DNA of 64,000 nt from Escherichia coli (GCF_024700885.2 NZ_CP117016.1), one strand, 5' to 3'. Positions 32,037 to 47,135 are shown, numbered from the stretch's first letter. The notes: a model not told the origin generated them from the letters alone. Made by a program: numbers and translations.

Positions 32037-32100
32037 ATGACTACACCAGTGACTACACCGTTCGGTGCACTGTATGAAACAACGTGGAACAAATAGACAC
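32037..32100 (+). repeat. left-end arm repeat (tgactacacc x2 then aacaacgtggaacaa)
   Basis: Near-identical to 47067-47135 in the same orientation. Confidence 0.7.
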
Positions 32101-32179
32101 AAGAAATATACAGGCGGATCATCTTTCCAGGGGGAAGCACACCAATTCATGAGGGGCGTTAATGTCGATATGGGGATCC

Positions 32180-32580
32180 CCACCTACCGGAATTTTTTTC
32201 CGGTTAAACGTTAATCAGGCTGGTGGGCTTTACCTGTTCGGTAGGTGTTATGATTATCGTAATACCTTTCCCCCAATGGGGTAAAAGCATCAACCGTAAC
32301 GAAAGTCGTTATGGTTGCCACTGATACCCCAAATTTGGGTATCACGAGTAAGCCCCAAAATCTGGGTGTTACTCTTACTACCCAAACTACGGGTAGTTTC
32401 CGTAGTTTCATGGTCGAGTTGCAGATCTGCAACTCCCCCATTAACCACAGGCGAATTTCCGCCTTCGGTCATTCCTTAATCATCTGCGTAATCATAATGA
32501 TTATTCAGCAAGCGCAATTTTGCGCTTTGCTTAAAGTTCAGCGAGTTACCGCGCCGACTTCCTCAAATTGAGGTTTCCGA
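32180..32580. other. palindrome-dense non-coding region (candidate packaging site or structured RNA)
   Basis: Inverted repeats read directly: cacctaccg/cggtaggtg, gatacccc-aaat-ttgggtatc, ctaccc/gggtag, ttgcagatctgcaa, gcgcaattttgcgc, cctcaaattgagg. Confidence 0.4.
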
Positions 32581-32689
32581 AAATATCAGCGGGTTAGCGA
32601 TTAAGCTGACCATTAATTAAACTGCGAAAATGTCGTAGTTGTGAGGGGTGTAGCCAACCCATTTTTGGGCCGTCGGGAATATCAACCAG

Positions 32690-32971
32690 TTACCGCCGCA
32701 ACCGCTCCGGCTTCTTCCAGTGGTACGTTATTTTCTCCTTCTCCCGATACATCTCCACGCGGCGACGGTAGGCCAGCAACTCAAGAACTCTGGTTCGTAT
32801 GTTGCGCATATCCACGCCATTAAGTTCTATACCATCACGGCGCATCACCTCAGCAACAACACGCGCATAGTTTTCGGCTGTCACGCTGTCCGGCTGCGTG
32901 GCCTGTTCGTCAGCCTGCTGGCTGATTCCGGCAACGCGGCGGATTAATCCCGTTATTTCGGCTTCTGTCAT
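32690..32971 (-). CDS. hypothetical protein (last gene of head/packaging operon)
   Basis: 93-aa ORF 13 bp downstream of terL on the same strand. Confidence 0.5.
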   Translation of the reverse strand: MTEAEITGLIRRVAGISQQADEQATQPDSVTAENYARVVAEVMRRDGIELNGVDMRNIRTRVLELLAYRRRVEMYREKEKITYHWKKPERLRR

Positions 32972-32984
32972 GCTGCTGACCTCA

Positions 32985-34646
32985 TTACACCCCGCTAAAT
33001 TCTTCCAGTTTCTGGCGGTGGCTGTCGCTTATATCAAAAGCAAAATCCTCATGCTCTGCCTGGAATGTACCAAACGCCATCAGCGCCGCCACGCTCGGGT
33101 CTATCTTGTTCGGTGATTTTTTCTTGTTCGGCTTGATATTGGCGTTCGCGTCACTCTGCATCACGACGTTACTCATCGACCAGGACAACACCGGATCGCC
33201 ACGATGCACAATCACCCTGCGGTTAACAAAAACTTCGAACGATTTCGCCGCCGGACTGAATCTGAGGTAGGTTTGCGGGAACGGCTCCACCTCAAAACCT
33301 GCCCCCTGTAATTGCGTTCTGAGATGCGTGGCGTTCCACGTATCAAAGCCCACCAGCCTGATATTAAATTTCTCCGCGTCCTGCATGATGTCATCTCTGA
33401 TCCGGTCGTAATCAATGCAGTCGCCAGGCGTTGTGCGTATCCAGCCTGCTTTAGCCCACTGACGATAGATGGCGCGGTTTTTATTGGCGGGGTTCTGTAG
33501 CTGAAATTCCGGCAGATAGTGACGGGAAACCAGCATAATGGTTTTACCGACCGGAAAGGCATAGCACACGCTGGAAATATCGCTGGTTGATGATAAGTCC
33601 AGCCCCGCGTAACACTCCTGGCCGTGTAAATCTTCCTCCGTGAACGTTCCGGCACACTCAGCCCATGCGCCGTTACCCATCCACGGGGTAGCCCCCTGGC
33701 ACCAGATATTAAATCGCTTTGTCATCATCTCCACCCACTGCGACGGAATACCCCGCGCTTTCTGGATGGTTGAGGCCAGTTTTTCACGATCGACGGAAAC
33801 ATCAATATTAGGGTTCGCCTTTATCCACATCGCCGGATCATCAACCTCGTTTTCGTCGTCCAGTTCGTAAATCAGTACAAAAATTGAATCGTTAACCTCT
33901 TCGCCGTCCAGGATCTGGCAGCAATAATCATAGTGCTGCTTACAGGCTGAAACGACGTTGCTGCCTGATGTGGTAATGGCAAATAACAGCCCTTCGGGAC
34001 GTGCGCCCATCCCCAGCTCAAGCGCGGAATAAACGCCGTTATCGGGGTGCAAGTGGTATTCGTCCACGATGGAAAGGCTGGGGTTTGTTCCCTCGATGGT
34101 TGCCGCTTTTGCTGCCAGCGGCTTTAACAGGCTGTTGCTTTTCGGGTGTATCACCTTATGCGCCTGAATATTCACCCGCCTGCGTAACGGTCGGGATAAA
34201 AGGCACATCTGACGCGCATCATCAAAGACGATCCGCGCCTGGTCACGGCTCACCGCTGCGGTGTAGATATCCTGCTGACCGTTCTCCATAATCAGAAACC
34301 AGTTAGCCAGAATCGCGGCGGTCGTGGATTTCGCATTTTTGCGCGGCACTTCGATAAAGGCGCTCGTGTATTTGCGCCGTCCGGTGGCCTTAACCTTAAA
34401 GCCGAGGATGCACGCAAAGGCGAACTGCTGCCACGGCTCCAGCTCAATGGGTCTGCCACGCATCGGTCCTTTTACGTGCGGGCACACCCTGGAAAAGGCA
34501 ATAAACCGCTCCACAACCTCACGATCGAACGTGTAAAGGGGGCTTTTAAGGTCCGAAAAGTACCGTTTAACGGCCTGTTTCAGCCGTTTACAGGCCGGAA
34601 TTTTGCCCGTTTTTACGTCTTCTGCGTACTTATTCCAGGCGGTCAA
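32985..34646 (-). CDS. terminase large subunit
   Basis: 553-aa ORF with an N-terminal ATPase-like region and a C-terminal nuclease-like acidic region typical of TerL; overlaps terS by 17 nt. Confidence 0.85.
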   Translation of the reverse strand: MTAWNKYAEDVKTGKIPACKRLKQAVKRYFSDLKSPLYTFDREVVERFIAFSRVCPHVKGPMRGRPIELEPWQQFAFACILGFKVKATGRRKYTSAFIEVPRKNAKSTTAAILANWFLIMENGQQDIYTAAVSRDQARIVFDDARQMCLLSRPLRRRVNIQAHKVIHPKSNSLLKPLAAKAATIEGTNPSLSIVDEYHLHPDNGVYSALELGMGARPEGLLFAITTSGSNVVSACKQHYDYCCQILDGEEVNDSIFVLIYELDDENEVDDPAMWIKANPNIDVSVDREKLASTIQKARGIPSQWVEMMTKRFNIWCQGATPWMGNGAWAECAGTFTEEDLHGQECYAGLDLSSTSDISSVCYAFPVGKTIMLVSRHYLPEFQLQNPANKNRAIYRQWAKAGWIRTTPGDCIDYDRIRDDIMQDAEKFNIRLVGFDTWNATHLRTQLQGAGFEVEPFPQTYLRFSPAAKSFEVFVNRRVIVHRGDPVLSWSMSNVVMQSDANANIKPNKKKSPNKIDPSVAALMAFGTFQAEHEDFAFDISDSHRQKLEEFSGV

Positions 34647-34986
34647 GCTCGTCCTCTTCTTCTGTTTCCGGTGGGTTTTTACGGCGGCTTATCGGGTCAA
34701 AACCGAGCAAGGAGGCCATTTTTATCATCACCCTTTCAGCGTCTGATTTCGCGCTTAATGCGGGGTTTCTGCTCTCGCCGCCCTGACTGTTAACAATGCT
34801 GAACCCGCGCGCCGCAAGGTCTGCGACGGCTTTCCGGTAAATGGAGTAGTTGACACAATACAGTTCCAGATTGCTCCAGTCGGCGGGGGTCAGGTCTCCC
34901 CGTTCCGCAAGCTGCCGCGATTTTTCCCGCCACTGCTTCACGGCGATGTCATCCAGGTAGGCGGGGGCTTTCGGTGGTCTTGCCAT
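34630..34986 (-). CDS. terminase small subunit (P27-family-like)
   Basis: 118-aa ORF with the W…LTxAD…YC…NPA pattern typical of P27-type TerS; directly upstream of terL. Confidence 0.65.
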   Translation of the reverse strand: MARPPKAPAYLDDIAVKQWREKSRQLAERGDLTPADWSNLELYCVNYSIYRKAVADLAARGFSIVNSQGGESRNPALSAKSDAERVMIKMASLLGFDPISRRKNPPETEEEDELDRLE

Positions 34987-35108
34987 GCTTATTTTTCGTC
35001 AGATTATTTTTCAAAAAATTCCCGTGCATAAAAATTTGAGGAGGCGTTCGGTGCCCGGCGGGGTCGGGTTTGTCCTGAAAACGCCCCCCACCCCGTCATA
35101 CAGCCTCA

Positions 35109-35291
35109 TCAGCGATTGCGGAAACATTCCATAACCTCGCGGTCACGGTCGGTTAATCGCTTCGCTGTGATGCGTTCTGCGCGTCCTGACGCTTTATCTT
35201 TATGCCCTGTTTCCTGTGTCTTCCATGCGTCACGCTGCCTTATAAGTCCACGGATAAGGCGGTTTTGTTCCCGCTCATTCATCAGCGTCAT
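35109..35291 (-). CDS. possible small ORF between HNH and terS
   Basis: ~60 codons (MTLMNEREQNRLIRGL…) within the tail of a longer track ORF; could instead be non-coding cos-region DNA. Confidence 0.25.
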   Translation of the reverse strand: MTLMNEREQNRLIRGLIRQRDAWKTQETGHKDKASGRAERITAKRLTDRDREVMECFRNR

Positions 35292-35715
35292 ACATCCAGT
35301 TATTGCGGTTAGCGGCCCGTTCTTCCTCTTCACGAAATCCACCTGCGGCACGCTTGCTTTTTGTTGCCGGATCAAGCCATTTCGTTTTCTGGTTATGACA
35401 CGCCTGGCACAATGGTTGATGGTTCCATTCGGGCCAGAAGAGAACATCATCACCGCCATTAATCGGGATAATGTGATCCACCACCACGGCGGGCGTATAT
35501 ATCCCCTTCTCAAGGCATCGCACGCATAACGGGTTTTTACTCAGATACATGGCGCGGTATTTGTCCCACTGTCTGGAATATCCACGCGCGCGGCGGTGTC
35601 CTCGTCTGGCATCCTCTGCACGCCATGCCGCCCGCCTGTGCTCCTCACACTTGCCGGATTTAACGCGCCTGTTACAGCCTGGTTCTGTGCATCGTCTTAA
35701 TGGTTGCCACGGCAT
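35275..35715 (-). CDS. HNH endonuclease (terminase-associated)
   Basis: CxxC…HxxP…N…H…CxxCH arrangement in a 146-aa ORF next to terS. Confidence 0.8.
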   Translation of the reverse strand: MPWQPLRRCTEPGCNRRVKSGKCEEHRRAAWRAEDARRGHRRARGYSRQWDKYRAMYLSKNPLCVRCLEKGIYTPAVVVDHIIPINGGDDVLFWPEWNHQPLCQACHNQKTKWLDPATKSKRAAGGFREEEERAANRNNWMYDADE

Positions 35716-36011
35716 CAGTACACCCCCACATCACGGTAAGCCGTCCAGAGTGCGCCTATCGTCATGGGTACGCGTGTTTTTGCGTTATCCGCGACAATCT
35801 GGCGATTTTCATACAGGTGAGCGATAAACATCATGCAGCCAATCTTTATGGCTGGCGTGAACTCCAGCCCGTCATCAAAGCGCCTGCCTATGTGTATCTG
35901 GCACGCCTCAAGCGATGCGGCAATGTATCCGCTGATTAACTGGTCTTCATCGTCGCCATCGATGCGGCAATGGAGTTTCACTTCTTCCAGGGTGATAAGT
36001 TCTTCTGTCAT
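35715..36011 (-). CDS. gp6-like head-tail connector / head completion protein
   Basis: 98-aa ORF with N-terminus …TLEEVKLHCRIDGDDEDQLI… characteristic of this family. Confidence 0.6.
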   Translation of the reverse strand: MTEELITLEEVKLHCRIDGDDEDQLISGYIAASLEACQIHIGRRFDDGLEFTPAIKIGCMMFIAHLYENRQIVADNAKTRVPMTIGALWTAYRDVGVY

Positions 36012-36346
36012 TTTTCCGCGCCCTCACGACAAAGAATTTCAAGGCGTGTCCTGGCGGCATCCGGCAGCGGCTGCCCGATGATATTCAGTACACGCCCCGC
36101 CAGCGGCCCCGTACTGACCTTTATCCGGCTGGTGGCGTTGATGTCCTTCCGGTACCGTATCCAGATCCTTACGGTACCAATCGCCAGCTCTGCGCCCGAT
36201 GAAATGGCCTCCTTGCTGCTGACCATGTTCACGCTTGCCCAGAGTGTGTGACCGTCCTCCCACGTTTCGAGTATTTCGCCGGTTATATCCCTGGTCTGTT
36301 TCAGGGTCTGAATCGTTATCCTGTCACGCAGTCGCCCTATGTTCAT
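36008..36346 (-). CDS. head closure / head-tail adaptor protein
   Basis: ~112 aa from the internal Met of the track ORF; position between portal and gp6-like gene. Confidence 0.5.
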   Translation of the reverse strand: MNIGRLRDRITIQTLKQTRDITGEILETWEDGHTLWASVNMVSSKEAISSGAELAIGTVRIWIRYRKDINATSRIKVSTGPLAGRVLNIIGQPLPDAARTRLEILCREGAEK

Positions 36347-37554
36347 TCCGGTTTTTCTCCCTCGCTGATTTTTACTTCCTGTTTCCATGCCTGGCTGAAC
36401 TCATCACCACCATCACGCGGTGACAGACCTTCACGTTCGCGGGCTTCGTTCGGACACATAACGCCGGATTTGATGCCGCGCTCATAGGTGGCAAAGCGTT
36501 CGCCAGGTGTGGCCCGTAACAGGTCCGCGCTGTCAAACTCCACCTGATACCGGATACCAGGTACAGGCGAGGCCACCAGCAGGGCGTTTTTTATCTGCTG
36601 CTCAAAGTTCGCCAGCCACGGGCGCATCGTCATGGTGAGAAATGCGCGGCTTGCCTCGCTGAAATTGCTGTAGGTGCTGTTGCTGTATTCCTGCAAAAAA
36701 ATCGGCGAGACGTTGAACATTCGGGCGATGTCTTCAATGGTGAAGCGACGGGAGGCCAGCCATTCAGCATCCTGATTACTCATGCCCAGCTGCTGATAGC
36801 TCATACCCCCTTCAAGGATGGGCGTTTTTCCGGCGTTTCTGGCCCCTTTGTAGCGTTCCAGTGCGGCTAATGCCTGTTTGCCCTTCACGCCGTCCAGCCA
36901 TTCGCCTGACGTGATAACCCCTGCCGCCATCATGCCATCACGCATCACGCTCGCGCCGTGGCGTTGTTGGGCCAGCCCAAGCCCCAGCGATTCGCGGCAG
37001 ATGGTTACAGGTGAGCACCCCATAAAGCCGTCATCCGTGGAGTAACGAAGGTGAAGTACTTCCCACGGTAAATAGTTGCGGGTGTTTCCGGTGTAGGCGT
37101 CAGTGATGCAGTAGCGCCAGTTGTGTTCGCCTGTCTGCTCCACGTTCACCGACTGCGGCGGGTAAGGATGTAAAGCCGCCGGAAAACCATCACGCCCCCA
37201 CTGAATCACCGCATAAGCATTACCGTTTAACAGGCAGTGGCGGATCATCATTCGCTTAAACTGGTAGGGGGTTTGCCATGCGTTCGGGCGCTCGTTGAGG
37301 ATGTGATCGACCGGATGAGAATCAAGCCACTCGCGGGCCTCCTTCCCCTTCTCATTGCGTACCAGGTACAGGTAACACGGCATGGTAGCCACCGCCTCAG
37401 AGATGACCGTCACGGCGTTCATGACGGCGGGCAGTGATTCCGCTGTCCCCGATGATACGTACTCACCCGCCCCCGTGTTCGATGTGCCAGCCAGCGCCAT
37501 AAATTCATCCAGCGTCATGCTGCGCTGCTCTTTTTTTCTTCTGAAAGGCCACAT
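36343..37554 (-). CDS. portal protein (HK97 family)
   Basis: 403-aa ORF; size and position next to the prohead protease. Confidence 0.85.
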   Translation of the reverse strand: MWPFRRKKEQRSMTLDEFMALAGTSNTGAGEYVSSGTAESLPAVMNAVTVISEAVATMPCYLYLVRNEKGKEAREWLDSHPVDHILNERPNAWQTPYQFKRMMIRHCLLNGNAYAVIQWGRDGFPAALHPYPPQSVNVEQTGEHNWRYCITDAYTGNTRNYLPWEVLHLRYSTDDGFMGCSPVTICRESLGLGLAQQRHGASVMRDGMMAAGVITSGEWLDGVKGKQALAALERYKGARNAGKTPILEGGMSYQQLGMSNQDAEWLASRRFTIEDIARMFNVSPIFLQEYSNSTYSNFSEASRAFLTMTMRPWLANFEQQIKNALLVASPVPGIRYQVEFDSADLLRATPGERFATYERGIKSGVMCPNEAREREGLSPRDGGDEFSQAWKQEVKISEGEKPE

Positions 37555-37555
37555 A

Positions 37556-38128
37556 TCACACCCCCGCTAAATCCACCCACCAGCGGCGATTATCCGCACG
37601 CGGCATTTTTTCGGGGTGCTGCTCATACAGGGAACGGCGGGCCAGCTCCACGCCGGAATCGGGGTAAGCCGGTACCGATGTAACGGTAATTTCGTACAGT
37701 TCCGCCACCAGCACGGTGCGCACGCATGGATCTGTTGTGGTATCCCATACATCCTTACGGGAGCGAAAGCCAAAGCTCATCCCCGAGATGTCCCCACGCT
37801 TAACCAGTTCGATAACGTCGCGCCCTGTACTGGTATCCGGTGGGGTCAGTTCAAAGCGTAACCCTGTTTCGTCCTCTTCCAGTTTCAGCGTGCCGGAACG
37901 GGTGCGCCCCAGTAACATGCTGTGGTCATGCTCATACAGGCCGCGAACGTCATTACCCGCCGCAAGCCACTCAGTAAACGCCCCCCGCTGGAATTTTTCG
38001 TAAAACTCCCCCCATAGCAGTTCTGAAAGCTTATCCCAGCGAACAACGTAGCCCGTCAGCGTACCGGCTCCGCTGGTAGTGATTTCCGATGACCGGATTT
38101 CCATACTCTTCATAATTTTTTCACCCAT
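37556..38128 (-). CDS. prohead maturation protease (HK97 family)
   Basis: 190-aa ORF with the GMSFGF region characteristic of HK97 prohead proteases. Confidence 0.85.
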   Translation of the reverse strand: MGEKIMKSMEIRSSEITTSGAGTLTGYVVRWDKLSELLWGEFYEKFQRGAFTEWLAAGNDVRGLYEHDHSMLLGRTRSGTLKLEEDETGLRFELTPPDTSTGRDVIELVKRGDISGMSFGFRSRKDVWDTTTDPCVRTVLVAELYEITVTSVPAYPDSGVELARRSLYEQHPEKMPRADNRRWWVDLAGV

Positions 38129-38167
38129 AAAACACTAAAGGGGCTTTTAAGCCCCTTCTGTATGCTG

Positions 38168-39325
38168 TTAATCGTCGTCCTGTGGCAGTTCCAGAATCTT
38201 GATCGCGTTCGAATCCACCACGCCACCGCCTAAATATTTCTGCGTGAAAATTTTGATGAAGCCCGGCTCTGTGAGGTTGTCCGGTCTGGTGCGAACACCT
38301 GTTTCGTGATCAACAATGTAGTAACCGCGTTTGAAGTCACCCAGGGCAATAACGTTATCCGGCATAAACTCCAGATATTCGACCGGAAGGCCCAGTAACG
38401 TATCAGGATCACCCGCCTGTAAACGGTCGCGCCAGATGTAATCACCGTTCGCGTTCTTCACCTTCTGAAGTTTTGCCGCCGTCGTGGAGTTAACCACCCA
38501 GACCGCGTTTTTGCGGTATTTTTTACGTAATGCAAATTTCAGGTCGATCAGCGGGTCCGCAGATGTCCACGCCAGAGATTCGGAAGGTTTAATTACCTGC
38601 AACGTACCAAAATCACGCTCTTTGTCGTTCTTCTCTGCACGGGGTACGGATAAAAAGCCTTTTGCTTTTTTGTCACCGTCGCCCACAACCAGATCGCTTT
38701 CTTCGGTTTCCGTGAAGTTGTCGCCAATCTCGCCCGTCAGCCATGAAAGGATGTCCACATCGGAAAAATCCACGATTTCCTGCGTGGTGCGCGGGTACGC
38801 ATAGACCGGATACAGCTTAATGCTCACCTCGTTAATCTGCGGGGTGCTGGTCTGTTCGCGTGCCTTACCCTCTTCACCGTGGTTAACGGTCGCACCGCCA
38901 GCGGAAACAAGCTGCTTAAACTCGTTGCTGCTGATTTTCTTCACGGTACAGATGCGGCGCATGGTGGATTCATCCGTCAGCATTCGCATGATTTCGGTGT
39001 TCAGTTCGGGGATAACGGTATAACCACCATCAGCGGGAACGCCTGTACTTAATGCGCGGGTTTCACCTGTCAGAATGTAGTGACGTAGTTCGGCTGGGTC
39101 AGTGGTCTGACTGCTTTTACCTGGCTTGCTGCGCTCTTCGTCTGCAATGGCTTCAAGGCGGGAAATGTCTTTATCGAGGGATTCAGCTTTAGCGCGTAAT
39201 TCGTCAAATTTTGCGCCCTCAGCATCGTTAAGACTGCGGTTTTCTTTTTCCGCGTTCTCCAGCATGTCGCGCATCTGATTTTTAATGGCGGTTTTCTGCT
39301 GGCGTAATTCGATTATTCTCGGCAT
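38168..39325 (-). CDS. major capsid protein (HK97 fold) with N-terminal delta domain
   Basis: 385-aa ORF; N-terminal ~100 aa charged and coiled-coil-like, then a capsid-like region. Confidence 0.85.
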   Translation of the reverse strand: MPRIIELRQQKTAIKNQMRDMLENAEKENRSLNDAEGAKFDELRAKAESLDKDISRLEAIADEERSKPGKSSQTTDPAELRHYILTGETRALSTGVPADGGYTVIPELNTEIMRMLTDESTMRRICTVKKISSNEFKQLVSAGGATVNHGEEGKAREQTSTPQINEVSIKLYPVYAYPRTTQEIVDFSDVDILSWLTGEIGDNFTETEESDLVVGDGDKKAKGFLSVPRAEKNDKERDFGTLQVIKPSESLAWTSADPLIDLKFALRKKYRKNAVWVVNSTTAAKLQKVKNANGDYIWRDRLQAGDPDTLLGLPVEYLEFMPDNVIALGDFKRGYYIVDHETGVRTRPDNLTEPGFIKIFTQKYLGGGVVDSNAIKILELPQDDD

Positions 39326-39362
39326 AAAAAAAGTCCTGGGGTTAAGTAAGGAACTCCAGGAC
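39326..39362 (-). terminator. terminator-like hairpin + U7 immediately 5' of the capsid start codon
   Basis: Minus strand reads gtcctggag…ccaggac then ttttttt then ATG; the AGGA Shine-Dalgarno lies inside the 3' stem arm. Confidence 0.5.
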
Positions 39363-39582
39363 GCGGCAAAAACTCAACCGTTTTTCATAAGGAAATCAGC
39401 AATCGCACCGATCGTTTTCCCGCCTGGTAATGAATATTGGCGAGAACATTAACAGGCGGAAAAGTGGCCCCAGCGTCCTGGCACCACGGGCGAGAATAAT
39501 CATGATTCAGTTCGGGTAAAATATGCCGATCCGCTCAGTGAACAACGTGGAACAACCACGAACAAATAATTTACAAAACATG

Positions 39583-39605
39583 ACAAAAAGCCGGATTGCT
39601 CCGGC
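39583..39605 (-). terminator. intrinsic terminator after the replication-module genes
   Basis: Hairpin gccggagcaatccggc followed by a T-run on the minus strand, just below the 93-aa ORF stop. Confidence 0.55.
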
Positions 39606-39612
39606 TGTGTGA

Positions 39613-39894
39613 TTATCTGTCCTGGTAATTTCGCCATATTTCATTACCAGCACCATCCATACCCATTTCGGCATAAGTGCGATCGACCGCCTTTTTCAGG
39701 TCTCCGTAGTTATCCGGCGGCTCCGGTGGCCTCTGTGCCTTCCTGGAACATTCCAGCCGTCGCATCGTGATGTGATGCCGTTCCTTGTCTGTCTCCACCA
39801 GTTGCATGACTTCACCCCATCGCGCCGACGCTCTCCGGTAAAAGCCTTTCGCCTCCAGTTCTTCCGCTATGCGGTCATGTACCATCGTCCCCAC
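39613..39894 (-). CDS. hypothetical protein
   Basis: 93-aa ORF, operonic with ssb. Confidence 0.5.
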   Translation of the reverse strand: MGTMVHDRIAEELEAKGFYRRASARWGEVMQLVETDKERHHITMRRLECSRKAQRPPEPPDNYGDLKKAVDRTYAEMGMDGAGNEIWRNYQDR

Positions 39895-39897
39895 CCC

Positions 39898-40308
39898 TCA
39901 GAACGGAATATCATCACCGTAAGGGTCATCGCCTCCCGCTGGTGGCTGATTACCCTGTGTGCCTGTGGTCTTGCGTCGGCTCCCACCAGGACGTGCCGCA
40001 CGGGCACTGATTACGCTGTCTGCAATAACCTGATAACCCTGCCGCGTTTCCCCGTTCTGTCCGGTCCACTGGCTGACCTGCATCGTGCCGGATACGCTGG
40101 CAACGTCGCCTTTTTGATGTTTAGCCAGGAAGTCGGCCTGCTTACCAAATGCGATGACCGATAGCCATAACGTCGCCTGTCCATCCTGTGCCTGGCTGCA
40201 TGGCAGCGATACCGCCATACGCGCCAGCGTCATCGGTGTACCCTTGCTGGTCTGTTTTACCTGCGGGTCGTCCACCAGCCGCCCGTAAGCTGCTATCTGT
40301 GCTGTCAT
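39898..40308 (-). CDS. ssb: single-stranded DNA-binding protein
   Basis: 136 aa ending in the acidic DDIPF tail; Gly/Pro-rich linker. Confidence 0.85.
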   Translation of the reverse strand: MTAQIAAYGRLVDDPQVKQTSKGTPMTLARMAVSLPCSQAQDGQATLWLSVIAFGKQADFLAKHQKGDVASVSGTMQVSQWTGQNGETRQGYQVIADSVISARAARPGGSRRKTTGTQGNQPPAGGDDPYGDDIPF

Positions 40309-40583
40309 GATTCCACCTCTCCGGTTTTAACGTTGATGGTTGTTACCTGTTCCGCTTCGGCAATCTCCCGCTCTGTCAGCGTGGCAAAATTTGCCGCCGT
40401 CGTGGTCATGAATGCGCTTATCAGTTTGGGATGTGCTTTCGCGTATCCTTCCCCCGCGTGGCGGTCTATCGTTCTGATTGCCACCTTTAAAGCGTGCTCT
40501 GTCATGTCTAACGCGCGATATTTCGGTTCTGTTCTGTCTCTGCGTTTTTTGAGTGATTTATTAAATTTCCCTGAAGTGTGCAT
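40305..40583 (-). CDS. hypothetical protein
   Basis: 92-aa ORF overlapping the ssb start by 4 nt. Confidence 0.5.
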   Translation of the reverse strand: MHTSGKFNKSLKKRRDRTEPKYRALDMTEHALKVAIRTIDRHAGEGYAKAHPKLISAFMTTTAANFATLTEREIAEAEQVTTINVKTGEVES

Positions 40584-40599
40584 ATTTATTTTTACCCCC

Positions 40600-40865
40600 T
40601 CGTTTAAAAAGTTTTGAGTTGTGCCTCCCCTTGTCTACCTTATCTACCTTAGTGGCCCTCATACCAGTAATGGCGCGGCTTTCAGCGGGGTAGAGTGCTT
40701 TTATCCACTATCTACCCCGTGTCTACCTCCCTGTCTGATTCAGGTAAAATCAGGTAGAGAGGGTAGATAGTGGGTAGACAGTAAAAAAAGGTTATCTACC
40801 TAACTTAATGCACTGAATTAAATGTATTTTTCTTTACTCAGGTAGACAGGGTAGACAGCAATTAC
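40600..40865. repeat. iteron-rich candidate replication origin
   Basis: At least 12 copies of a 7-9-bp unit (ggtagaca / tctacc) in both orientations, immediately 3' of the primase gene. Confidence 0.7.
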
Positions 40866-40871
40866 AAAAAA

Positions 40872-42626
40872 TTATAAAAACGCGTCGCACTCGTCTGTTG
40901 TTATTGCGTTAGTCTGCGTTACTCCCTTAACTTTCCGCGTAATATATTCATGTCCGTAAACTTTCGCGGCTGGCTTCATAGCCTTGCCAAAGTCATTTAC
41001 GTTTAGCGGTTTGCTCCTGCCTGCGTACGCCATAAACGCCAGATAGACGCGGTAAAGGCTGTTTCTGGTCGTGTACTTCACTGAATCGCCACCGCCGCCC
41101 ATCATCAGGCCGCGTGCTTCCTCCAGAAAATTCAGGAACTGGCAAAACTCAATAACCGGATCCGTCTGTTGCTTTATTGCCAGAGCTTCATCACCGTCAC
41201 GCTGTTCCAGTAGTAAAGCCCGTGCCTTCTCAGGGTCGGTAAAGTTCGCCAGCAATCGGCGGATAATGACAGGGATTTCAGCCGCGATCTTTTCCGGTAG
41301 CTCCCTGTCTTTTTCGGCCTCACTGACGATATTGTCGAAACGGAAAATCACGCGACGACGTGCCACACCTCCGGCCCGTTCGGTGAATATCATCGGGTTA
41401 TTGTTGGTCGCCAGCACCACCGCCCTGATTACCGCCGTGAAACGCTTTTCGTATTTCGGGTTAATTTCCACGGGGTCACCGCCCGTGATTTTCTTGATGC
41501 CCGTTCCTTCGCCTGTATATTTCGGCTGGTCAGCCAGGACGATAAGACGACTCCCGACAACCTGCGCACGTCCACCAGCATCATCAAGCGATGTCATTTC
41601 AGCGCTTACCGTGTTCTGTTTCCCTGCCAGAAGGCTGGCTATGTGTGTGAATGTACTTTTACCGCTCCCGCCGTCTCCGGTGGCCTCAATAAACATCTGC
41701 CAGTCGTACCGGTTCGCCATAATCATGTACAGCGCGGCACATATACGCATCATCTTGCGCGGGTCTTTTCCGGCTGCGTGCTCAAGCCATTTATGAAAGT
41801 TTGGCGCGTTATCGCGGATGTTCTCCCCTGGTGCTGGTGGCGTGTACTCAATGCCGTTGTGCGTGGTGATCCAGTTCTCCGGCGTGTGCGGGGAAAATTC
41901 CCCCGTTTTCAGGTCAAGCGCACCATTGGCGAACGGCAACAAATCGCCGGACGGCTCGCCCATTGGTTCGGCAATAACTTTTAACGCTTCCACGGCGTTA
42001 TTGATTACGCGCTTGCTGAAAGTGGCCCTGTGCTCTGAATAGATCGCCACCATTTCGCGGCTAAGTTCCATTGTGCTGACCGGACACCATACCCCGCCGC
42101 GCCATACGTGAACGATTTCACTTTCAGGATGTACGCAAACGCCATCAAAGCGATCGGCAAGCAGTTGCGCGCGCTCACTGTCCGCCATCTGCGAAAGTTG
42201 CGCCTTTTGCTTTACCGGAAGCTCAATGACCAGACCATCAGAAAGATTCTGGCGCTCACGGGCCAGATATTCGCGCCAGTTCTCCACCTTCTGACCGTGC
42301 ATACCATCAGGGTAAAAATTTGCATCCTGTACGCCTGCCGCCGCCAGCTTCTGACCAATCGCCTTTATCATTACTGGCGCAAGATATCCGGCCCTGAATA
42401 TGCGCACGGATTTTCTGCCTTCCGGCACAATTTGCAGCTTATCCAGTTCGGATAACTGCTGCTCCCCAAGCCACACAGGAGGCTCATTATCTCCGGCCAT
42501 ACGCGCGTCATGTTCCTGCCATTGTTTTGCGTGTGACCAGGCATCACTACCCGCAAAAATAATGACTTCTGTTTCTTTGTGTTTTATGCCGCGTGACTGC
42601 TGTTTTACGTTCGGTGCCAGTTTCAT
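40872..42626 (-). CDS. replication protein: primase/helicase (P4-alpha / D5-like)
   Basis: 584-aa ORF with Walker A GDGGSGKST. Confidence 0.8.
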   Translation of the reverse strand: MKLAPNVKQQSRGIKHKETEVIIFAGSDAWSHAKQWQEHDARMAGDNEPPVWLGEQQLSELDKLQIVPEGRKSVRIFRAGYLAPVMIKAIGQKLAAAGVQDANFYPDGMHGQKVENWREYLARERQNLSDGLVIELPVKQKAQLSQMADSERAQLLADRFDGVCVHPESEIVHVWRGGVWCPVSTMELSREMVAIYSEHRATFSKRVINNAVEALKVIAEPMGEPSGDLLPFANGALDLKTGEFSPHTPENWITTHNGIEYTPPAPGENIRDNAPNFHKWLEHAAGKDPRKMMRICAALYMIMANRYDWQMFIEATGDGGSGKSTFTHIASLLAGKQNTVSAEMTSLDDAGGRAQVVGSRLIVLADQPKYTGEGTGIKKITGGDPVEINPKYEKRFTAVIRAVVLATNNNPMIFTERAGGVARRRVIFRFDNIVSEAEKDRELPEKIAAEIPVIIRRLLANFTDPEKARALLLEQRDGDEALAIKQQTDPVIEFCQFLNFLEEARGLMMGGGGDSVKYTTRNSLYRVYLAFMAYAGRSKPLNVNDFGKAMKPAAKVYGHEYITRKVKGVTQTNAITTDECDAFL

Positions 42627-42922
42627 TTTTTACCCCTGAATCCGTTAATCATGGTTTTCAGCTTCTGGATGTTTGCCCGTGCCCTGGCGTTGCTGGTGGA
42701 CACGTTATGCGGCGCGGTCTGTACCAGAGAAAAATCACGCCGGAACTGATAAACAGGCATCACGCAATCATATTCGTAACCTTCACGGCGGTAGGTTACG
42801 CGCCGTTCTTCCACGCCCTTAATCATTACCGTGCCGCCGTACTGGTCGCGGTAAATATCGCCGCGCGTAAATTTAGGGTGAGTGTTGCCACTGGCAGTTA
42901 AGCCAGAATATTTAAGTTTCAT
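42623..42922 (-). CDS. hypothetical protein
   Basis: 99-aa ORF; stop overlaps primase start (ATGA). Confidence 0.55.
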   Translation of the reverse strand: MKLKYSGLTASGNTHPKFTRGDIYRDQYGGTVMIKGVEERRVTYRREGYEYDCVMPVYQFRRDFSLVQTAPHNVSTSNARARANIQKLKTMINGFRGKK

Positions 42923-42927
42923 TATTT

Positions 42928-43161
42928 TTATTCTCCGGTGTGCTGTTCTTTATATCTGTCGTGCAATAGATCTATTTCTTGCAGTTCCATTATTACAGGC
43001 TCAAGAAGCGTTATTAATGCCGTGGCAATTCTTGATTTTTGTTTGTCGCGTTCATTGTCGCCAAGTGTTTCAAGCCATATGCGCAATATTTCCAGCATGT
43101 TTTCACTGTGAGAAAGTGCAAGAAATGCGCGGTCTATTGTTTCGTGGTAAATATCACGCAT
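42928..43161 (-). CDS. hypothetical protein
   Basis: 77-aa ORF in a tightly packed same-strand operon. Confidence 0.5.
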   Translation of the reverse strand: MRDIYHETIDRAFLALSHSENMLEILRIWLETLGDNERDKQKSRIATALITLLEPVIMELQEIDLLHDRYKEQHTGE

Positions 43162-43387
43162 GGCTTACATCCTCAGGAAATTTTCTTCTATAACGCGCCT
43201 CTGCCACATATTCCGCATAATCGGCGGCGATATTCAGTACATCAAGCCCCGTTGATTTATATTCTCTCGTGGAAAGTAAGAAAAAAGCCGCTCTAATAAG
43301 TTCTGGCATTGACGAAAGCGCATCAGCCGCATCATCAGGAACGCCGGAAAATTCCTGTTTCAGGGAATTAAAACGATCATCACGCAT
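43154..43387 (-). CDS. hypothetical protein
   Basis: 77-aa ORF with 8-nt overlap to the next gene. Confidence 0.5.
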   Translation of the reverse strand: MRDDRFNSLKQEFSGVPDDAADALSSMPELIRAAFFLLSTREYKSTGLDVLNIAADYAEYVAEARYRRKFPEDVSHA

Positions 43388-43745
43388 GTTTACCCCCCTG
43401 AATGACCTGATAACCGCAACTGGTCAGCAACTCGATAAATTCCGGCAGTGTGCCGAAACAGCAATCATCACGCAGCCGTTCACAGGATACCTCGACGCCG
43501 TTTTCGTAGTGACTCACCATACATCCGGTAAAATGCAGATCATCATCGTGATGGCTCGTTGACGGCTTAATCAGTCGCGCACGTTCCGCCAGTTCCAGCA
43601 ATGCTTCAACGCTTCCGGCAATTGCACCATCCGGCAGGTGATAATTACGCACTATGCGCCCGTTCTCCACATTGACCAGCAACTGCCCGGTAAATTTCTC
43701 ATCAAACTGAATGCTGTTAAGGTCAGAAATTGACAGATTATGCAT
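43380..43745 (-). CDS. hypothetical protein
   Basis: ~121 aa from MHNLSISDL; Cys-containing. Confidence 0.5.
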   Translation of the reverse strand: MHNLSISDLNSIQFDEKFTGQLLVNVENGRIVRNYHLPDGAIAGSVEALLELAERARLIKPSTSHHDDDLHFTGCMVSHYENGVEVSCERLRDDCCFGTLPEFIELLTSCGYQVIQGGKHA

Positions 43746-43962
43746 GGTGCACCTCCTGCACATCAGCCATGATAATTTTTCCGGCCTTATCCAGTGCCTG
43801 ATCGGCTTTTAGCTGCACAAATGCTAAATAATGGAAGATGCATTCTGATTCTCTGGCTGCGTGTTTATGCGCCCTGTCAGCAATAACAGAAATATCAATA
43901 AGCGCGTGCATCAGCGTAGTGAGCGCGGCGGCGGCTGCGTCCGGTGTGGTTTTATTGCACAT
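43738..43962 (-). CDS. hypothetical protein
   Basis: ~74 aa from an internal Met of the 92-aa track ORF; start uncertain. Confidence 0.4.
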   Translation of the reverse strand: MCNKTTPDAAAAALTTLMHALIDISVIADRAHKHAARESECIFHYLAFVQLKADQALDKAGKIIMADVQEVHHA

Positions 43963-44182
43963 GTACCCCTCCGCATTTTTTTTCGTTAGAAATAAGCGTT
44001 CTTCTTTCCTGTTCATCGCTCAGGAATACGCAGACCTCACCGCTAAGGCGTTTAAGTAAGCCGATGATTGCCCCTGATTCGCTGTCGGTCATCATGCCAG
44101 GGTAATCCTCTGCCAGTGCGCAAATAACTTCGATTTGGTGGGCGCGTTCTGCTGCCTGTTGTAGTGTGATTTCCTGGCTCAT
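43952..44182 (-). CDS. hypothetical protein
   Basis: 76-aa ORF. Confidence 0.5.
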   Translation of the reverse strand: MSQEITLQQAAERAHQIEVICALAEDYPGMMTDSESGAIIGLLKRLSGEVCVFLSDEQERRTLISNEKKCGGVHVQ

Positions 44183-44379
44183 AAGCCTACCCCCTGACGA
44201 ATACGGGCAGCAAATACCATCACGCAGCCAGCCGGAGATTGCTGGCGTGCTTCCTGTTCGCTGGTGGCCTCAATGGTAATCACGCGCGGTTGTGCCGTGC
44301 TCAGGGCGATAAAACGCCAGATGTATTTATTCAGGTTGTGCGAGTCCCGCCCTTGCGGGTGTGTGGTATGATTTCTCAT
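44179..44379 (-). CDS. hypothetical protein (possible first gene of early operon)
   Basis: 66 codons from the last Met of the long track ORF; GAGGT RBS 4 nt upstream; stop overlaps the next start. Confidence 0.35.
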   Translation of the reverse strand: MRNHTTHPQGRDSHNLNKYIWRFIALSTAQPRVITIEATSEQEARQQSPAGCVMVFAARIRQGVGL

Positions 44380-44475
44380 AGCTACCTCGATACTTTCGCT
44401 ATCGTTGGTGGTTAGAAGCCCGGTTAGTGTTAGCGCACTGCCGGGTTTCGTCGTTTCTGCACCTTGCGCCAACAA

Positions 44476-44549
44476 GGTGTTGAACACCAATTTAAACCCA
44501 GGTGTTAAACACGTCAAGTGTTGAACACTTATTTTTTTTCCTGCATACT
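44476..44549. promoter_or_regulatory. divergent control region with three 13-bp palindromic operators and a sigma70-like promoter
   Basis: ggtgttgaacacc (44476-44488), ggtgttaaacacg (44501-44513), agtgttgaacact (44517-44529); ttgaac -35 and catact -10 with 17-bp spacer. Confidence 0.6.
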
Positions 44550-44578
44550 GCATTTGTTTTTTATGAGGGGTACACCAC

Positions 44579-44758
44579 ATGGCGACAAAAGCGGTAAACG
44601 CAAAATCACAAACCGTTGCGGCAAGGGTTCCGCATGAAGTTATGAACAATGTTGAGGCGGTAAAAATGCCTGGCGAAAGTACGGGGCAATTTGTTACTGC
44701 GGCATTAAAACGAGAAGTTGAATATCGCCAGCGGCGCAAGGCCAAAGAACCAGAGTAA
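44579..44758 (+). CDS. small DNA-binding protein, probable ribbon-helix-helix regulator
   Basis: Hand-translated 59-aa ORF MATKAVNAKSQTVAARVPHEVMNNVEAVKMPGESTGQFVTAALKREVEYRQRRKAKEPE; gagggg RBS 8 nt upstream. Confidence 0.55.
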   Translation: MATKAVNAKSQTVAARVPHEVMNNVEAVKMPGESTGQFVTAALKREVEYRQRRKAKEPE

Positions 44759-45084
44759 TCACCATCAGCGCCGTGGTGTAAGGTATTACGGCGCATTGCT
44801 ATGCAGGACAACACAATGACCGATAAAGAATTGACCAAAACATTATCACCGGCACGGAAAAGACGGCGCAGAAAGATAGAGCATGAATCAGAAAGATTCG
44901 CGCCATGTGCTTTTGCCCTTGAGCAATTCCTTAAAGAGTACAGGGAAAAGCGCTCATTGCAGGTATGGCAACGAACTGAACCAGACTGATTGCATTGCCC
45001 ACCAGCCTGATAACGGCTATCATCCCCGTGCTTATGTTTGGGATCACACACACAAACGGCGCAGCGGGTTATCTGTTCAGAAAG

Positions 45085-45112
45085 GCGGCTCCATTTCGGG
45101 GCCGCTTTTTTT
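45085..45112 (+). terminator. intrinsic terminator
   Basis: Hairpin gcggctcc…ggggccgc followed by T7. Confidence 0.6.
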
Positions 45113-45258
45113 ATACCTGAAAAACCCCAATTTTGTTGTTTTTCAGTTTCACCAGGGCGAACGAATCCCCGCCCACGTTCTGGCGTATATTCAATCTTCA
45201 TGGTTATAGCTCTGTGTTCAGATGATTGATGTGTGGCGGCTGCGTGCCGCCAGCGTGA

Positions 45259-45528
45259 TTAATGAACTGCCTTGCAGCTATCCTTCCAGGCCAGAACCTC
45301 GGATAAAGACCAGCCAACGGAACGACCGCCAAGTTTACGACGTGATGGGAATTGTCCGGCCTTTTCCAGGCGGTAGCGACACGTACGGCTAAGGCCGGTT
45401 AGTTTTTCGCATTCTTTTTCACGTATAAACCGATCAGTGCTTAACACTATTGCCCCCCTTTCGTTTCTTAAAGAGTCATCAGGTGTCTTATTGTGTCGTA
45501 TTGTTCCCGCTAGAGTGATGAATGGCAA
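45259..45528 (-). CDS. alpA: AlpA-family transcriptional regulator / excisionase-like
   Basis: C-terminal …LTGLSRTCRYRLEKAGQFPSRRKLGGRSVGW… HTH typical of AlpA; true start probably internal. Confidence 0.7.
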   Translation of the reverse strand: MPFITLAGTIRHNKTPDDSLRNERGAIVLSTDRFIREKECEKLTGLSRTCRYRLEKAGQFPSRRKLGGRSVGWSLSEVLAWKDSCKAVH

Positions 45529-45720
45529 ATACTGAGGATGTATGATTTACAGAAAATGAAACAGTAAGAATAAAATTTTTTAAATTCATGTTAATACAAA
45601 GGCATAAAATATTGTTCCATGCCTTTTTTCTCGCTCTTTAAAGAGTGATTCGCTAGTGTACAAAAAACCAGTAACGCATTAAAAATCAGCTACTTATAAA
45701 TCCGTACGCTTTTTCGCCTC

Positions 45721-45760
45721 TTGTTCGTAGTTGTTCCACATTGTTGCTCATTGTTGCACG
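45721..45760. repeat. internal copy of ACAACGTGnAACAA motif (reverse orientation) upstream of alpA
   Basis: Reverse complement reads acaacgtgcaacaatgagcaacaatgtggaacaactacgaacaa. Confidence 0.55.
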
Positions 45761-45812
45761 TTGTATCTGTTCGCATATCCAGTATGCGCATACTGAAAAA
45801 ACACGAAAAAAA

Positions 45813-47042
45813 TTATTTTCTTCTGGCTACGGGTAGCGTGGTTACGTTTTCATGTGTTCCCGCCAGTATCCCTAACCGCTCCGTCCACATATCCAGCGCA
45901 TTGCGTTTCGCATCCAGATAACGGGAATGATTATAAACTCGCTGCATTCCTGGCATCTGGTGGCCTGTAAGCTGCTCCACGACATGCGGATCAACGCCTA
46001 AATCGTTCAGCATGGTTGTAAAGGTGCGCCGGATGTCATGCAGTGACCAGTGAGGGTGATTAAGCCTCCTGTACGCTAATCTTCCATACTGCGATACGCT
46101 GGCCTCCTGTTTCACTTCCCCCAGCAATAAGCCCGTGTGCCTGTTCTGCTCCACCAGCTGCGTGACGAACGGCAGGATCGCTTCCGGTATGGGCCGGAAT
46201 ATTGCGACCTTCGTTTTGCTGTGCTCCTTCGGAACGGTCCATAGCATTTCCGTAAAATCCCACTCCCCGATCTCCGATAACCTCAGTTCTACCGTTCTGG
46301 CTCCGAAGACAATCAGGAGGCGGATTAACGCGACGTAGTAAGGGGAGAATATTTTTTTGTCCAGTGCCTGCAATAATTCGCCAAGTTCTTTGTTACTTAA
46401 GACACGTTCGCTTATATCCGGTTTTTTCCCAACGTCCGCAACGTTCAGATCGTCCAGAACGTTGCTGATTGCATAGCGCCGCCTACGGCAGAACTTAAGC
46501 GCCTGTTTGCACGCCTGTAGCACGAATCCGGCAGTAACAGGCGTTCGCTTTGCCACCTGGTCAAAACAGGCCAGCCAGTGCCGTAGCTCGCATTTATCCA
46601 GCGGCATAGCACCAATCTGCTGTATTACGTGATTATTAAGTCGCCTTTTCAGGGCGATATAATCCACGCGGTTTTCCTTTACGTAATACTCAAGCCAGTA
46701 GGTGAGCGCATCGCCAACCGTTACGGGCTTTAACGCTTCCTGTACGGTGTAATTCATCTCATGACGTGGATTTTTCCCCTCAGCCAGCCATGTGCGACAC
46801 TGTGCGGCTTTTTCCCTGGCTGCTTTCAGGCTCAGATCAGGATAACTTCCCAGCTTAATGCGTTCGGGTCGTGTCTCCCTTCCCGTTCCGGCCCTGTATG
46901 TGAAATACCAGGTCAATTTCCCTGATGTTAAATATTTCACGCTCAGGTTTCCGCCATCACTATAAAACGTGTTTTTCTCCGCTGGCTTACCATGAAGTTT
47001 CCTTAGCAAGGTATCGCTCAGTTTGTTCATTGCTCTGCTCAC
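45813..47042 (-). CDS. int: tyrosine recombinase / integrase
   Basis: 409 aa with C-terminal catalytic region (HDIRRT…RVYNHSRY); adjacent to attR. Confidence 0.9.
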   Translation of the reverse strand: MSRAMNKLSDTLLRKLHGKPAEKNTFYSDGGNLSVKYLTSGKLTWYFTYRAGTGRETRPERIKLGSYPDLSLKAAREKAAQCRTWLAEGKNPRHEMNYTVQEALKPVTVGDALTYWLEYYVKENRVDYIALKRRLNNHVIQQIGAMPLDKCELRHWLACFDQVAKRTPVTAGFVLQACKQALKFCRRRRYAISNVLDDLNVADVGKKPDISERVLSNKELGELLQALDKKIFSPYYVALIRLLIVFGARTVELRLSEIGEWDFTEMLWTVPKEHSKTKVAIFRPIPEAILPFVTQLVEQNRHTGLLLGEVKQEASVSQYGRLAYRRLNHPHWSLHDIRRTFTTMLNDLGVDPHVVEQLTGHQMPGMQRVYNHSRYLDAKRNALDMWTERLGILAGTHENVTTLPVARRK

Positions 47043-47066
47043 GTTTTACCCCCTCTTTACGAAAAA

Positions 47067-47135
47067 GTGACTACACCAGTGACTACACCGATCGTTGCAC
47101 AAAGGGCTACAACGTGAAACAAGCTGGAACAAGGA
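47067..47135 (+). repeat. right-end arm repeat (gtgactacacc x2 then acaacgtgaaacaa)
   Basis: Matches 32037-32100; lies between int and attR. Confidence 0.7.

Follow-up and report, generated by a model that had tools for sequence, protein, structure and literature searches.

The current work concerns a window of 64,000 nucleotides (nt) of Escherichia coli DNA (GCF_024700885.2 NZ_CP117016.1; "the window" denotes this whole stretch), and in particular a block at positions 42623-44379 that is filled by seven open reading frames (ORF1 to ORF7), all located on the minus strand and followed by the gene (pri) of a primase/replicase. The block is situated in an island which, judged by its gene content, belongs to the phage-inducible chromosomal islands of the capsid-forming type (cf-PICIs), and it probably constitutes the promoter-proximal part of the early operon of that island.

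A block of seven coupled small genes upstream of the replicase

The ORFs of the block and the replicase gene that follows them are listed below, with lengths given in amino acids (aa).

44179..44379, minus strand: ORF1, 66 aa, first translated gene of the operon
43952..44182, minus strand: ORF2, 76 aa, optional cassette
43738..43962, minus strand: ORF3, 74 aa, highly allelic
43380..43745, minus strand: ORF4, 121 aa, optional cassette
43154..43387, minus strand: ORF5, 77 aa
42928..43161, minus strand: ORF6, 77 aa
42623..42922, minus strand: ORF7, 99 aa, DUF4222
40872..42626, minus strand: primase/replicase, 584 aa, TIGR01613 (P4-family primase; 109.1 bits, with the cut-off at 108.7) and phrog_864

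An earlier note on this DNA had described seven ORFs of 66-127 aa that overlap by 4-11 nt and form one translationally coupled operon reading into pri. The seven ORFs are indeed real genes of a single co-directional and tightly coupled operon that reads into pri, because a Shine-Dalgarno motif is present at each start, the junctions are coupled, no terminator-like site was found on the operon strand inside the block, the exact protein of each ORF occurs on at least 1,000 contigs, and the ratios of non-synonymous to synonymous substitution rates (dN/dS) are low. The Shine-Dalgarno motifs, of the GGAG, GAGG or GGGG type, lie 5-12 nt 5' of all seven starts and are placed inside the preceding gene. 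The overlaps amount to 4 nt (ORF1/ORF2), 11 nt (ORF2/ORF3) and 8 nt at each of the three following junctions (ORF3/ORF4, ORF4/ORF5 and ORF5/ORF6), as had been described, while ORF6 and ORF7 are separated by a gap of 5 nt; the stop codon of ORF7 in turn overlaps the ATG of the replicase gene by 4 nt (ATGA), an arrangement observed in 82 of 82 loci. The upper size limit also requires correction, since the longest product is that of ORF4 with 121 aa: the upstream ATG that would yield 127 aa has no Shine-Dalgarno motif and implies a 26-nt overlap with ORF3, and was rejected in favour of the start that is preceded by AGGAGG and called by RefSeq. The same seven ORFs are called by RefSeq/PGAP in identical islands.

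Selection on these ORFs was estimated from a set of 87 related loci, collected from E. coli genomes and IMG/VR. The median pairwise dN/dS ranges from 0.19 to 0.43 for ORF1, 2, 3, 5, 6 and 7 (0.23 for ORF1, 0.29 for ORF3, 0.19 for ORF5, 0.35 for ORF6, and 0.43 for ORF2, the last being derived from 3 pairs only), and ORF4 was left out of this calculation owing to its too limited ungapped diversity.

Distribution of the block and order of its genes

Parts of the 1.8-kb block were matched in 1,936 of 5,426 complete E. coli genomes, i.e. about a third, and at least 80% of the block in only 128 of them. When the block DNA was compared with 50,697 phage genomes no match was retrieved, and neither did tblastn with ORF6 return a match among these 50,697 records; in the same collection a BLAST-level match to ORF1 was obtained for one record only, a satellite-like "induced prophage" of 16.5 kb. 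The block thus appears to be essentially absent from true phage genomes, with ORF2 to ORF6 being apparently restricted to satellites.

Across the 87 related loci the gene order is fixed, reading Icd-like gene, (ORF2), ORF3, (ORF4), ORF5, ORF6, DUF4222 gene and replicase gene, where brackets indicate genes that are optional. ORF2 is present in 23 of these 87 loci, and ORF3 and ORF5 exist among them as diverged alleles. As judged from these comparisons, the block behaves as a mosaic core early operon, in which allelic cassettes occupy a fixed order, unlike a cargo hotspot. In relatives without some of the small ORFs, AntA/AntB and BRO-N anti-repressor-like genes are found nearby.

ORF1, its long open frame and a candidate antisense RNA

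The features located around and upstream of the start of ORF1 are as follows.

44179..45201, minus strand: long open frame of 340 aa ending in ORF1, an Eta-like nested-gene arrangement
44364..44455, plus strand: candidate cis-antisense small RNA, opposite the Shine-Dalgarno motif and start codon of ORF1
44489..44517, minus strand: sigma-70-like promoter (TTGACG, 17 nt, TAAATT), a match from a consensus scan only
44475..44528, no strand assigned: three operator-like repeats of sequence A(G/A)GTGTT(G/A)AACAC, palindromic in their core, from a repeat search
44579..44758, plus strand: divergent YlcI/YnfO-family gene, 59 aa, NF041551 (59.7 bits against a cut-off of 30)
45259..45447, minus strand: alpA, helix-turn-helix activator/excisionase family, upstream of the operon, phrog_2790 and RefSeq call

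ORF1 encodes a basic protein (isoelectric point, pI, 10.7) that belongs to the Icd-like family NF033153, which it matches with 68.2 bits (cut-off 25) over profile positions 1-48 of 48, and it also matches phrog_6196 and phrog_1743. Since the C-terminus of the P4 "cI gene product (AA 1-137)" likewise matches NF033153 and phrog_1743, ORF1 is predicted to be an Icd/Kil-like protein and the counterpart of P4 kil/eta. In P4, Eta is the long form, which is translationally coupled to the alpA homologue, and Kil is the truncated, cell-killing form; moreover, a constitutive internal promoter gives rise to prematurely terminated transcripts, and translation of eta blocks this termination (PMC10111431).

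A comparable long frame exists in the window, as 340 codons that are in phase with alpA, begin directly after the alpA stop codon and end in ORF1. Among 78 related loci, about half keep this frame free of stop codons over more than 200 codons, with a maximum of about 540. The part of it located opposite the YlcI gene is a shadow frame of that gene, and the 200-nt leader 5' of the ORF1 ATG has an omega of about 1 and contains stop codons in some relatives. On account of this omega and of these stop codons the 133-aa and 340-aa forms of ORF1 were rejected as selected proteins with respect to their leader part, and the 66-aa product is therefore taken as the selected protein. We infer that the long open frame is an Eta-like feature, of which the translation, rather than the sequence, may matter.

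The ORF1 start is furthermore covered by a candidate antisense RNA of approximately 75 nt, which would begin near 44379/44380, after an extended -10 element TGGTATGAT at 44364-44372, and which comprises two hairpins as well as a tail rich in U that ends near 44455. The extended -10 element TGGTATGAT falls within ORF1 codons 3-6 and is retained in both major ORF1 allele groups. The Rfam model RF01809 (SymR) matches positions 44380-44452 on the plus strand with 33.3 bits (E 3.6e-4 in a 1.2-kb search); this score, like the 33.9 bits obtained for the related locus L004, lies below the SymR gathering score of 61, and the candidate does not correspond to a curated Rfam family of its own. The same two hairpins and U-rich tail recur in 26 distinct variants, for which RNAalifold predicted 23 pairs, 9 of these with compensatory changes, and 98.7% of the cells are paired as opposed to 89.4% in shuffled alignments and 35-57% when the partners are slid. 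Strand preference follows from the base pairs themselves, as G.U pairs account for about 28% of paired cells on the plus strand and become A.C mismatches on the mRNA strand, and from the minimum free energies, which range from -27.5 to -41 kcal/mol on the antisense strand versus -18 to -30 on the mRNA strand. A conserved two-hairpin structure is thus present over the ORF1 ribosome-binding site, with the G.U content favouring the antisense strand, and this provides good evidence for a putative cis-antisense RNA that covers the Shine-Dalgarno motif and start codon of ORF1, as occurs in type I toxin-antitoxin pairs. By analogy, the candidate may work like SymR, though it falls outside that family by the Rfam criterion.

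The candidate promoter of the operon is situated 110 nt upstream of ORF1, and the operator-like repeats overlap both its -35 and its -10 hexamer. The protein encoded by the divergent YlcI/YnfO-family gene may be the repressor of this switch. Taken together, antisense RNA and operators are consistent with a first gene that is predicted to be toxic. Downstream of the YlcI/YnfO gene, a 62-aa ORF at 44801-44989 (plus strand; phrog_21027) is called by RefSeq at the equivalent place in the relative L006, and is not called in the identical island of strain C7.

In two relatives, L004 (3430-3631, minus strand) and L058 (3177-3362, plus strand), C4 and isrK RNAs were detected above the Rfam gathering scores, in both cases embedded in an ORF that shares the ATG of ORF1 and ends in the Icd-like domain. 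Such elements being present in these relatives and not in the window, the immunity modules differ between otherwise similar islands.

ORF2 to ORF6

Each of the seven ORFs has its own PHROG family (E 1e-28 to 1e-49), and for ORF2-6 these are all of unknown function: 1478 for ORF2, 5146 for ORF3, 340 for ORF4, 24341/2512 for ORF5 and 2196 for ORF6. No match to ORF2-6 was obtained in Pfam, NCBIfam, PADLOC or the PDB, profile searches of the PDB with alignments of ORF3, 4, 5 and 6 gave nothing significant, and a concatenated query with glycine linkers retrieved only linker noise from the PDB sequences. When ORF2-6 were joined into a single query against an index of 5.8 billion proteins, where candidates are selected by words, a single irrelevant match was obtained. 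The predicted products of ORF2, 4, 5 and 6 are acidic (pI 4.8-5.1, with 4.8 for ORF2), that of ORF3 having a pI of 6.3. No paralogy is detectable among ORF2-6; a common origin of ORF2, 3, 5 and 6 as helical hairpins was rejected, as all hhalign probabilities were below 1%.

ORF4 is a tandem duplication of a beta-hairpin/strand/helix domain of approximately 55 aa, of which single-domain versions are found in other islands. It is matched by only 23 clusters among 1.84 billion representatives, including divergent full-length homologues at 32-42% identity; the cysteines are absent from these homologues, and zinc binding by the Cys/His-rich part of ORF4 was rejected on that ground. The structure model of ORF4 was too poor for use. 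Among the 85 loci that have a close ORF7, 84 contain ORF6, which in almost every close relative is located directly upstream of the DUF4222 gene. Its alleles retain the C-terminal ...HTGE down to 26% identity, and the protein preceding DUF4222 nearly always ends in ...HTGE.

The identity of ORF3 between islands varies from 30 to 100%. ORF3 matches phrog_5146 and the N-terminal half of phrog_2512, and ORF5 matches phrog_24341 and the C-terminal half of phrog_2512. In islands without ORF4, ORF3 and ORF5 are joined through a run of seven to eleven G's (junction GAAAAT-Gn-TTATGCGTGAT), whereas in the window ORF4 intervenes. A run of G7 or G10 generates a fused protein of about 150 aa (phrog_2512), and G8, G9 or G11 leaves ORF3 and ORF5 separate; this junction was seen in L002 (11216-11680), L003, L012 and about 50 IMG/VR loci. 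The G run represents either a junction that is prone to slippage, and possibly phase-variable, or an error in the assembly of the homopolymer.

ORF7 and the replicase

ORF7 belongs to the family PF13973 (DUF4222), which it matches over its full length (E 6.1e-23, model positions 1-53 of 53). The protein is basic (pI 10.2), and its AlphaFold2 model consists of a small beta-barrel followed by a C-terminal basic helix, with a pLDDT of 75 overall and of about 90 over residues 20-66. In lambdoid phages, distantly related DUF4222 genes are located between cro/cII-like genes and the replication initiator. A genome-contig scan with peptide patterns for DUF4222 relatives yielded Escherichia albertii alone, owing to the narrowness of the patterns.

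The replicase encoded downstream of DUF4222 varies among islands, being a P4-family primase, a RepA-family helicase or a DUF927 protein. When the window replicase (40872-42626, minus strand, residues 1-125) was compared with those of L002 (9607-11004) and L004 (287-2416), residues 1 to about 125 were found to be common to the RepA-helicase (62%) and DUF927 (47%) types, the remainder being unrelated. Because three otherwise unrelated replicases have the same N-terminal domain after DUF4222, DUF4222 and that domain travel together, and the conserved module therefore appears to consist of DUF4222 plus the replicase N-terminal domain of about 125 aa. A replication-associated accessory role can be inferred for ORF7 from this context.

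In L006 (695-2797, minus strand) an in-frame fusion at the ATGA overlap joins DUF4222 and the replicase into one protein of 700 aa. This fusion was seen once and is absent among the 120 best homologues, and it is therefore treated as a one-off read-through.

The island and its genomic setting

The island that contains the operon is delimited as follows.

32038..47090, no strand assigned: cf-PICI (about 15 kb, capsid-forming), inserted in tqsA between 23-nt direct repeats

The copies of the direct repeat TGACTACACCAGTGACTACACCG are found at 32038 and 47068, i.e. 15.03 kb apart, and the chromosomal surroundings in the window include pntAB, ydgH and mdtIJ of E. coli. The AI-2 exporter gene tqsA is split by the island, N- and C-terminal fragments being located near 31830-31970 and 47240-48124.

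A 100%-identical island in strain C7 is annotated in RefSeq. Its left part comprises, in order, an integrase, an AlpA-type regulator and the divergent YlcI/YnfO gene, followed by the Icd-like gene, five hypotheticals, the DUF4222 protein, a DNA primase family protein, a further hypothetical, SSB and PerC; the late genes encode an HK97-type capsid, protease and portal, connectors and proteins for head closure, HNH, and both terminase subunits (terS, terL). Genes for a tail or for lysis are missing from the RefSeq annotation of this identical island. The presence of int, alpA, a replicase, a capsid set and terS/terL, without tail or lysis genes, on about 15 kb bounded by att repeats, indicates that the island is a capsid-forming PICI (10.1101/2022.09.08.507074; PMC10085698). 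PICIs are laid out in four zones, named Integration, Bro, Replication and Late (PMC10111431), and AlpA has a role in their induction, as in EcCICFT073, where it switches on the downstream genes (PMC6092414).

Comparison with known systems

The left operon of P4 contains ORF88 (vis), the cI/kil ORF, epsilon, ORF151, ORF106 and the alpha primase, with 8-nt overlaps. The block and its surroundings have in common with it an AlpA/Vis-type regulator, an Icd-like ORF contained in a longer frame that follows the alpA/vis gene directly, small ORFs with 8-nt overlaps and a P4-family primase. Unlike P4, the island encodes its own capsid, and instead of a C4/isrK-type CI RNA the window contains the divergent YlcI/YnfO gene, the three operator-like repeats and the candidate antisense RNA. 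A likeness between the N-terminus of orf151 and the DUF4222 core, noticed by eye, found no counterpart in Pfam, orf151 having no match there, and homology of ORF2-7 to epsilon, orf151 or orf106 was rejected.

EcCICFT073 and EcCIEDL933, representing PICIs and cf-PICIs, are islands of the same type, whose left arm likewise consists of int, alpA, small ORFs and a replicase gene. A protein at least 90% identical to ORF7 (AAN79962.1) is encoded by EcCICFT073, and ORF5-7 are present at 97-100% identity in an O157:H7 island; the replicase type and the set of small ORFs vary among Gram-negative PICIs and cf-PICIs. The published work on PICIs and cf-PICIs considered here has centred on alpA, pri and the interference and packaging genes, and not on these small ORFs (PMC6092414; 10.1101/2022.09.08.507074).

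A further comparison concerns the prophage-encoded "superinfection exclusion" locus of ECOR61, in which a phage accessory gene triggers growth arrest or cell death (Silas et al., 10.1101/2023.04.06.535777). The arrest was traced to an Icd-like gene together with two overlapping ORFs of small size, with six linked genes including the primase being needed; loss of the Icd-like gene abolished the effect, and its product is the likely toxic effector. In the same screen P4 was toxic only with int, alpA, its Icd-like gene and the primase all present (10.1101/2023.04.06.535777). The ECOR61 locus (QOYT01000045.1:8940-9675) has the layout of the block, with an Icd-like gene, small overlapping ORFs and a primase gene in one direction, and is likened to it by architecture only; it differs in that its Icd-like ORF has 121 aa with an N-terminal extension, that its small ORFs are two (61 and 63 aa) and that it comprises six genes in all.

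As in type I pairs of the SymE/SymR type, the candidate antisense RNA has a length of about 75 nt, a promoter within the first codons of its target, and covers the Shine-Dalgarno motif and start codon of the latter; its SymR score of 33 bits is below the gathering score, and unlike SymE the target is Icd/Kil-like. PADLOC-DB v2 returned zero families for all seven proteins at E<=0.1.

Discussion

The results presented here suggest that the block probably forms the promoter-proximal part of a cf-PICI's early operon, which leads from regulation to replication, and that this operon follows the plan of the P4 left operon (vis/alpA, eta/kil, small early genes, primase). In the mechanism which we propose, a helper phage would induce alpA, the operon would then be transcribed, and ORF1 would arrest division or growth of the host during replication of the island. 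ORF2-6, as small, mostly acidic, satellite-specific and interchangeable proteins, would bind proteins of the host or the helper in the way that P4 epsilon binds the P2 repressor, and ORF7 might assist the replicase through the common N-terminal domain, or through contacts with DNA or RNA polymerase. A phage-triggered growth arrest of the ECOR61 type would, by analogy, be a consequence of this induction circuit and not a separate defence system.

Several observations weigh against this interpretation. No relative of known function was retrieved for ORF2-6 by any of the sequence methods used, and ORF2-7 showed no relationship to P4 epsilon, orf151 or orf106 (BLASTP E>=0.05, hhalign probability at most 2.3%). 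ORF1 has no BLAST-level similarity in the phage collection beyond the single 16.5-kb satellite-like record, and inhibition of cell division is known from Icd of P1. Finally, no C4/isrK-type CI RNA was matched in the window even at E<=10, P4 and some relatives having such an RNA, and the switch therefore differs from that of P4.

The earlier note regarded all seven ORFs as being of unknown function and as lacking any recognisable motif. The latter statement does not hold in view of NF033153 (68 bits) for ORF1 and PF13973 (E 6e-23) for ORF7. The former applies to ORF2-6, whose matches are confined to PHROGs of unknown function: the remote-homology search which that note had proposed provided a family for ORF1 and ORF7 only, leaving ORF2-6 without relatives of known function, so that two of the seven (Icd/Kil-like and DUF4222), and not all of them, are assigned to known families. 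It was also argued there that this position typically carries helper-interference or anti-phage functions and is for that reason the most likely place for an undescribed system. In Gram-negative PICIs, however, the interference genes (c1499/c1500 of EcCICFT073) are located downstream of pri-rep and the accessory genes at the island ends (PMC6092414), and the prototype cf-PICI EcCIEDL933 shows negligible interference with its helper (10.1101/2022.09.08.507074), which makes the positional ("hotspot") argument weak; in addition, the block behaves as a core operon and matches no known defence model. The idea may nevertheless be kept alive, by analogy, by the presence of P4 kil and of the helper-derepressor epsilon at the equivalent position, and by the ECOR61 locus. 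The observation made in the earlier note was thus essentially right, and its interpretation partly right.

Alternatively, the block, with or without the primase, could be a dedicated abortive-infection or superinfection-exclusion system, in which ORF2-6, serving as sensors or modulators, would set the Icd/Kil-like effector free upon encountering a protein of an invading phage. We consider this unlikely, although in ECOR61 all six genes were needed and removal of the Icd-like gene abolished the effect (10.1101/2023.04.06.535777), cassette-like turnover of ORF2-6 is what an arms race would yield, and the first gene, predicted to be toxic, is guarded by a candidate antisense RNA. The resemblance to ECOR61 considered here is one of architecture, and the Tn5 insertions in the upstream small ORFs of that locus are polar on downstream genes and therefore do not demonstrate a sensor role. 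Moreover, PADLOC gave no matches, and the fixed order and position of the genes and their translational connection to the replicase in 82 of 82 loci are unlike the cargo of defence hotspots. The requirement of P4 toxicity for int, alpA, the Icd-like gene and the primase fits runaway induction of the satellite better than a separate system, and an abortive-infection-like outcome, plausible as it is, is therefore held to be secondary to the induction circuit.

A role of ORF2-6 as helper-directed piracy factors, for instance as anti-repressors inducing the helper prophage or as proteins that block replication or packaging of the helper, equivalent to P4 epsilon or to the interference proteins of Staphylococcus aureus pathogenicity islands (SaPIs), is judged quite improbable. 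P4 epsilon (95 aa) does occupy the equivalent slot with 8-nt overlaps to its neighbours, but none of ORF2-6 resembles it (hhalign probability at most 1.5%); small acidic proteins with a pI of 4.8-6.3 are typical of protein-binding inhibitors, and the satellite restriction exemplified by ORF6, together with the anti-repressor-like AntA/AntB and BRO-N genes near relatives that lack some of these ORFs, points in the same direction, whereas the negligible helper interference of EcCIEDL933, the location of mapped PICI interference genes downstream of pri, and the optional nature of ORF2 and ORF4, which are therefore not essential to the life cycle, point the other way. That some of the seven ORFs are no genes at all, having arisen by chance or as shadow ORFs in a transcribed leader, is extremely improbable: a long non-coding open frame does exist just upstream, the dN/dS of ORF2 derives from 3 pairs and ORF4 has no estimate, but a Shine-Dalgarno motif precedes all starts, no dN/dS that could be measured reaches 0.45, each ORF has a PHROG family of its own, and ORF4 has divergent full-length homologues.

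The early-operon interpretation leaves room for a more specific and speculative proposal, to which we assign a low probability, namely that the Icd/Kil-like gene, the SymR-like antisense RNA and ORF2-6 (with the primase) constitute a phage-sensing cell-death module within the induction circuit, where the variable proteins would serve as sensors of, or decoys for, proteins of invading phages and the poly-G junction between ORF3 and ORF5 of relatives would be a phase-variable switch. If true, such a module would account for the cassette-like turnover of the small ORFs as well as for the phenotype of ECOR61.

As part of a known element type the block is ordinary, very common and widely shared, and it does not represent a new kind of system; what is more unusual is the candidate antisense RNA, the open frame of Eta-like type and the poly-G junction. 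Yet about a third of complete E. coli genomes contain parts of it, no study has dealt with five of its proteins, and within the satellite it would be expressed first once a helper phage is sensed. Identification of the binding partners of ORF2-6 would reveal by what means PICIs and cf-PICIs gain control of the cell and of the helper, and the same knowledge would tell whether satellite induction doubles as abortive infection, as is hinted at by ECOR61.

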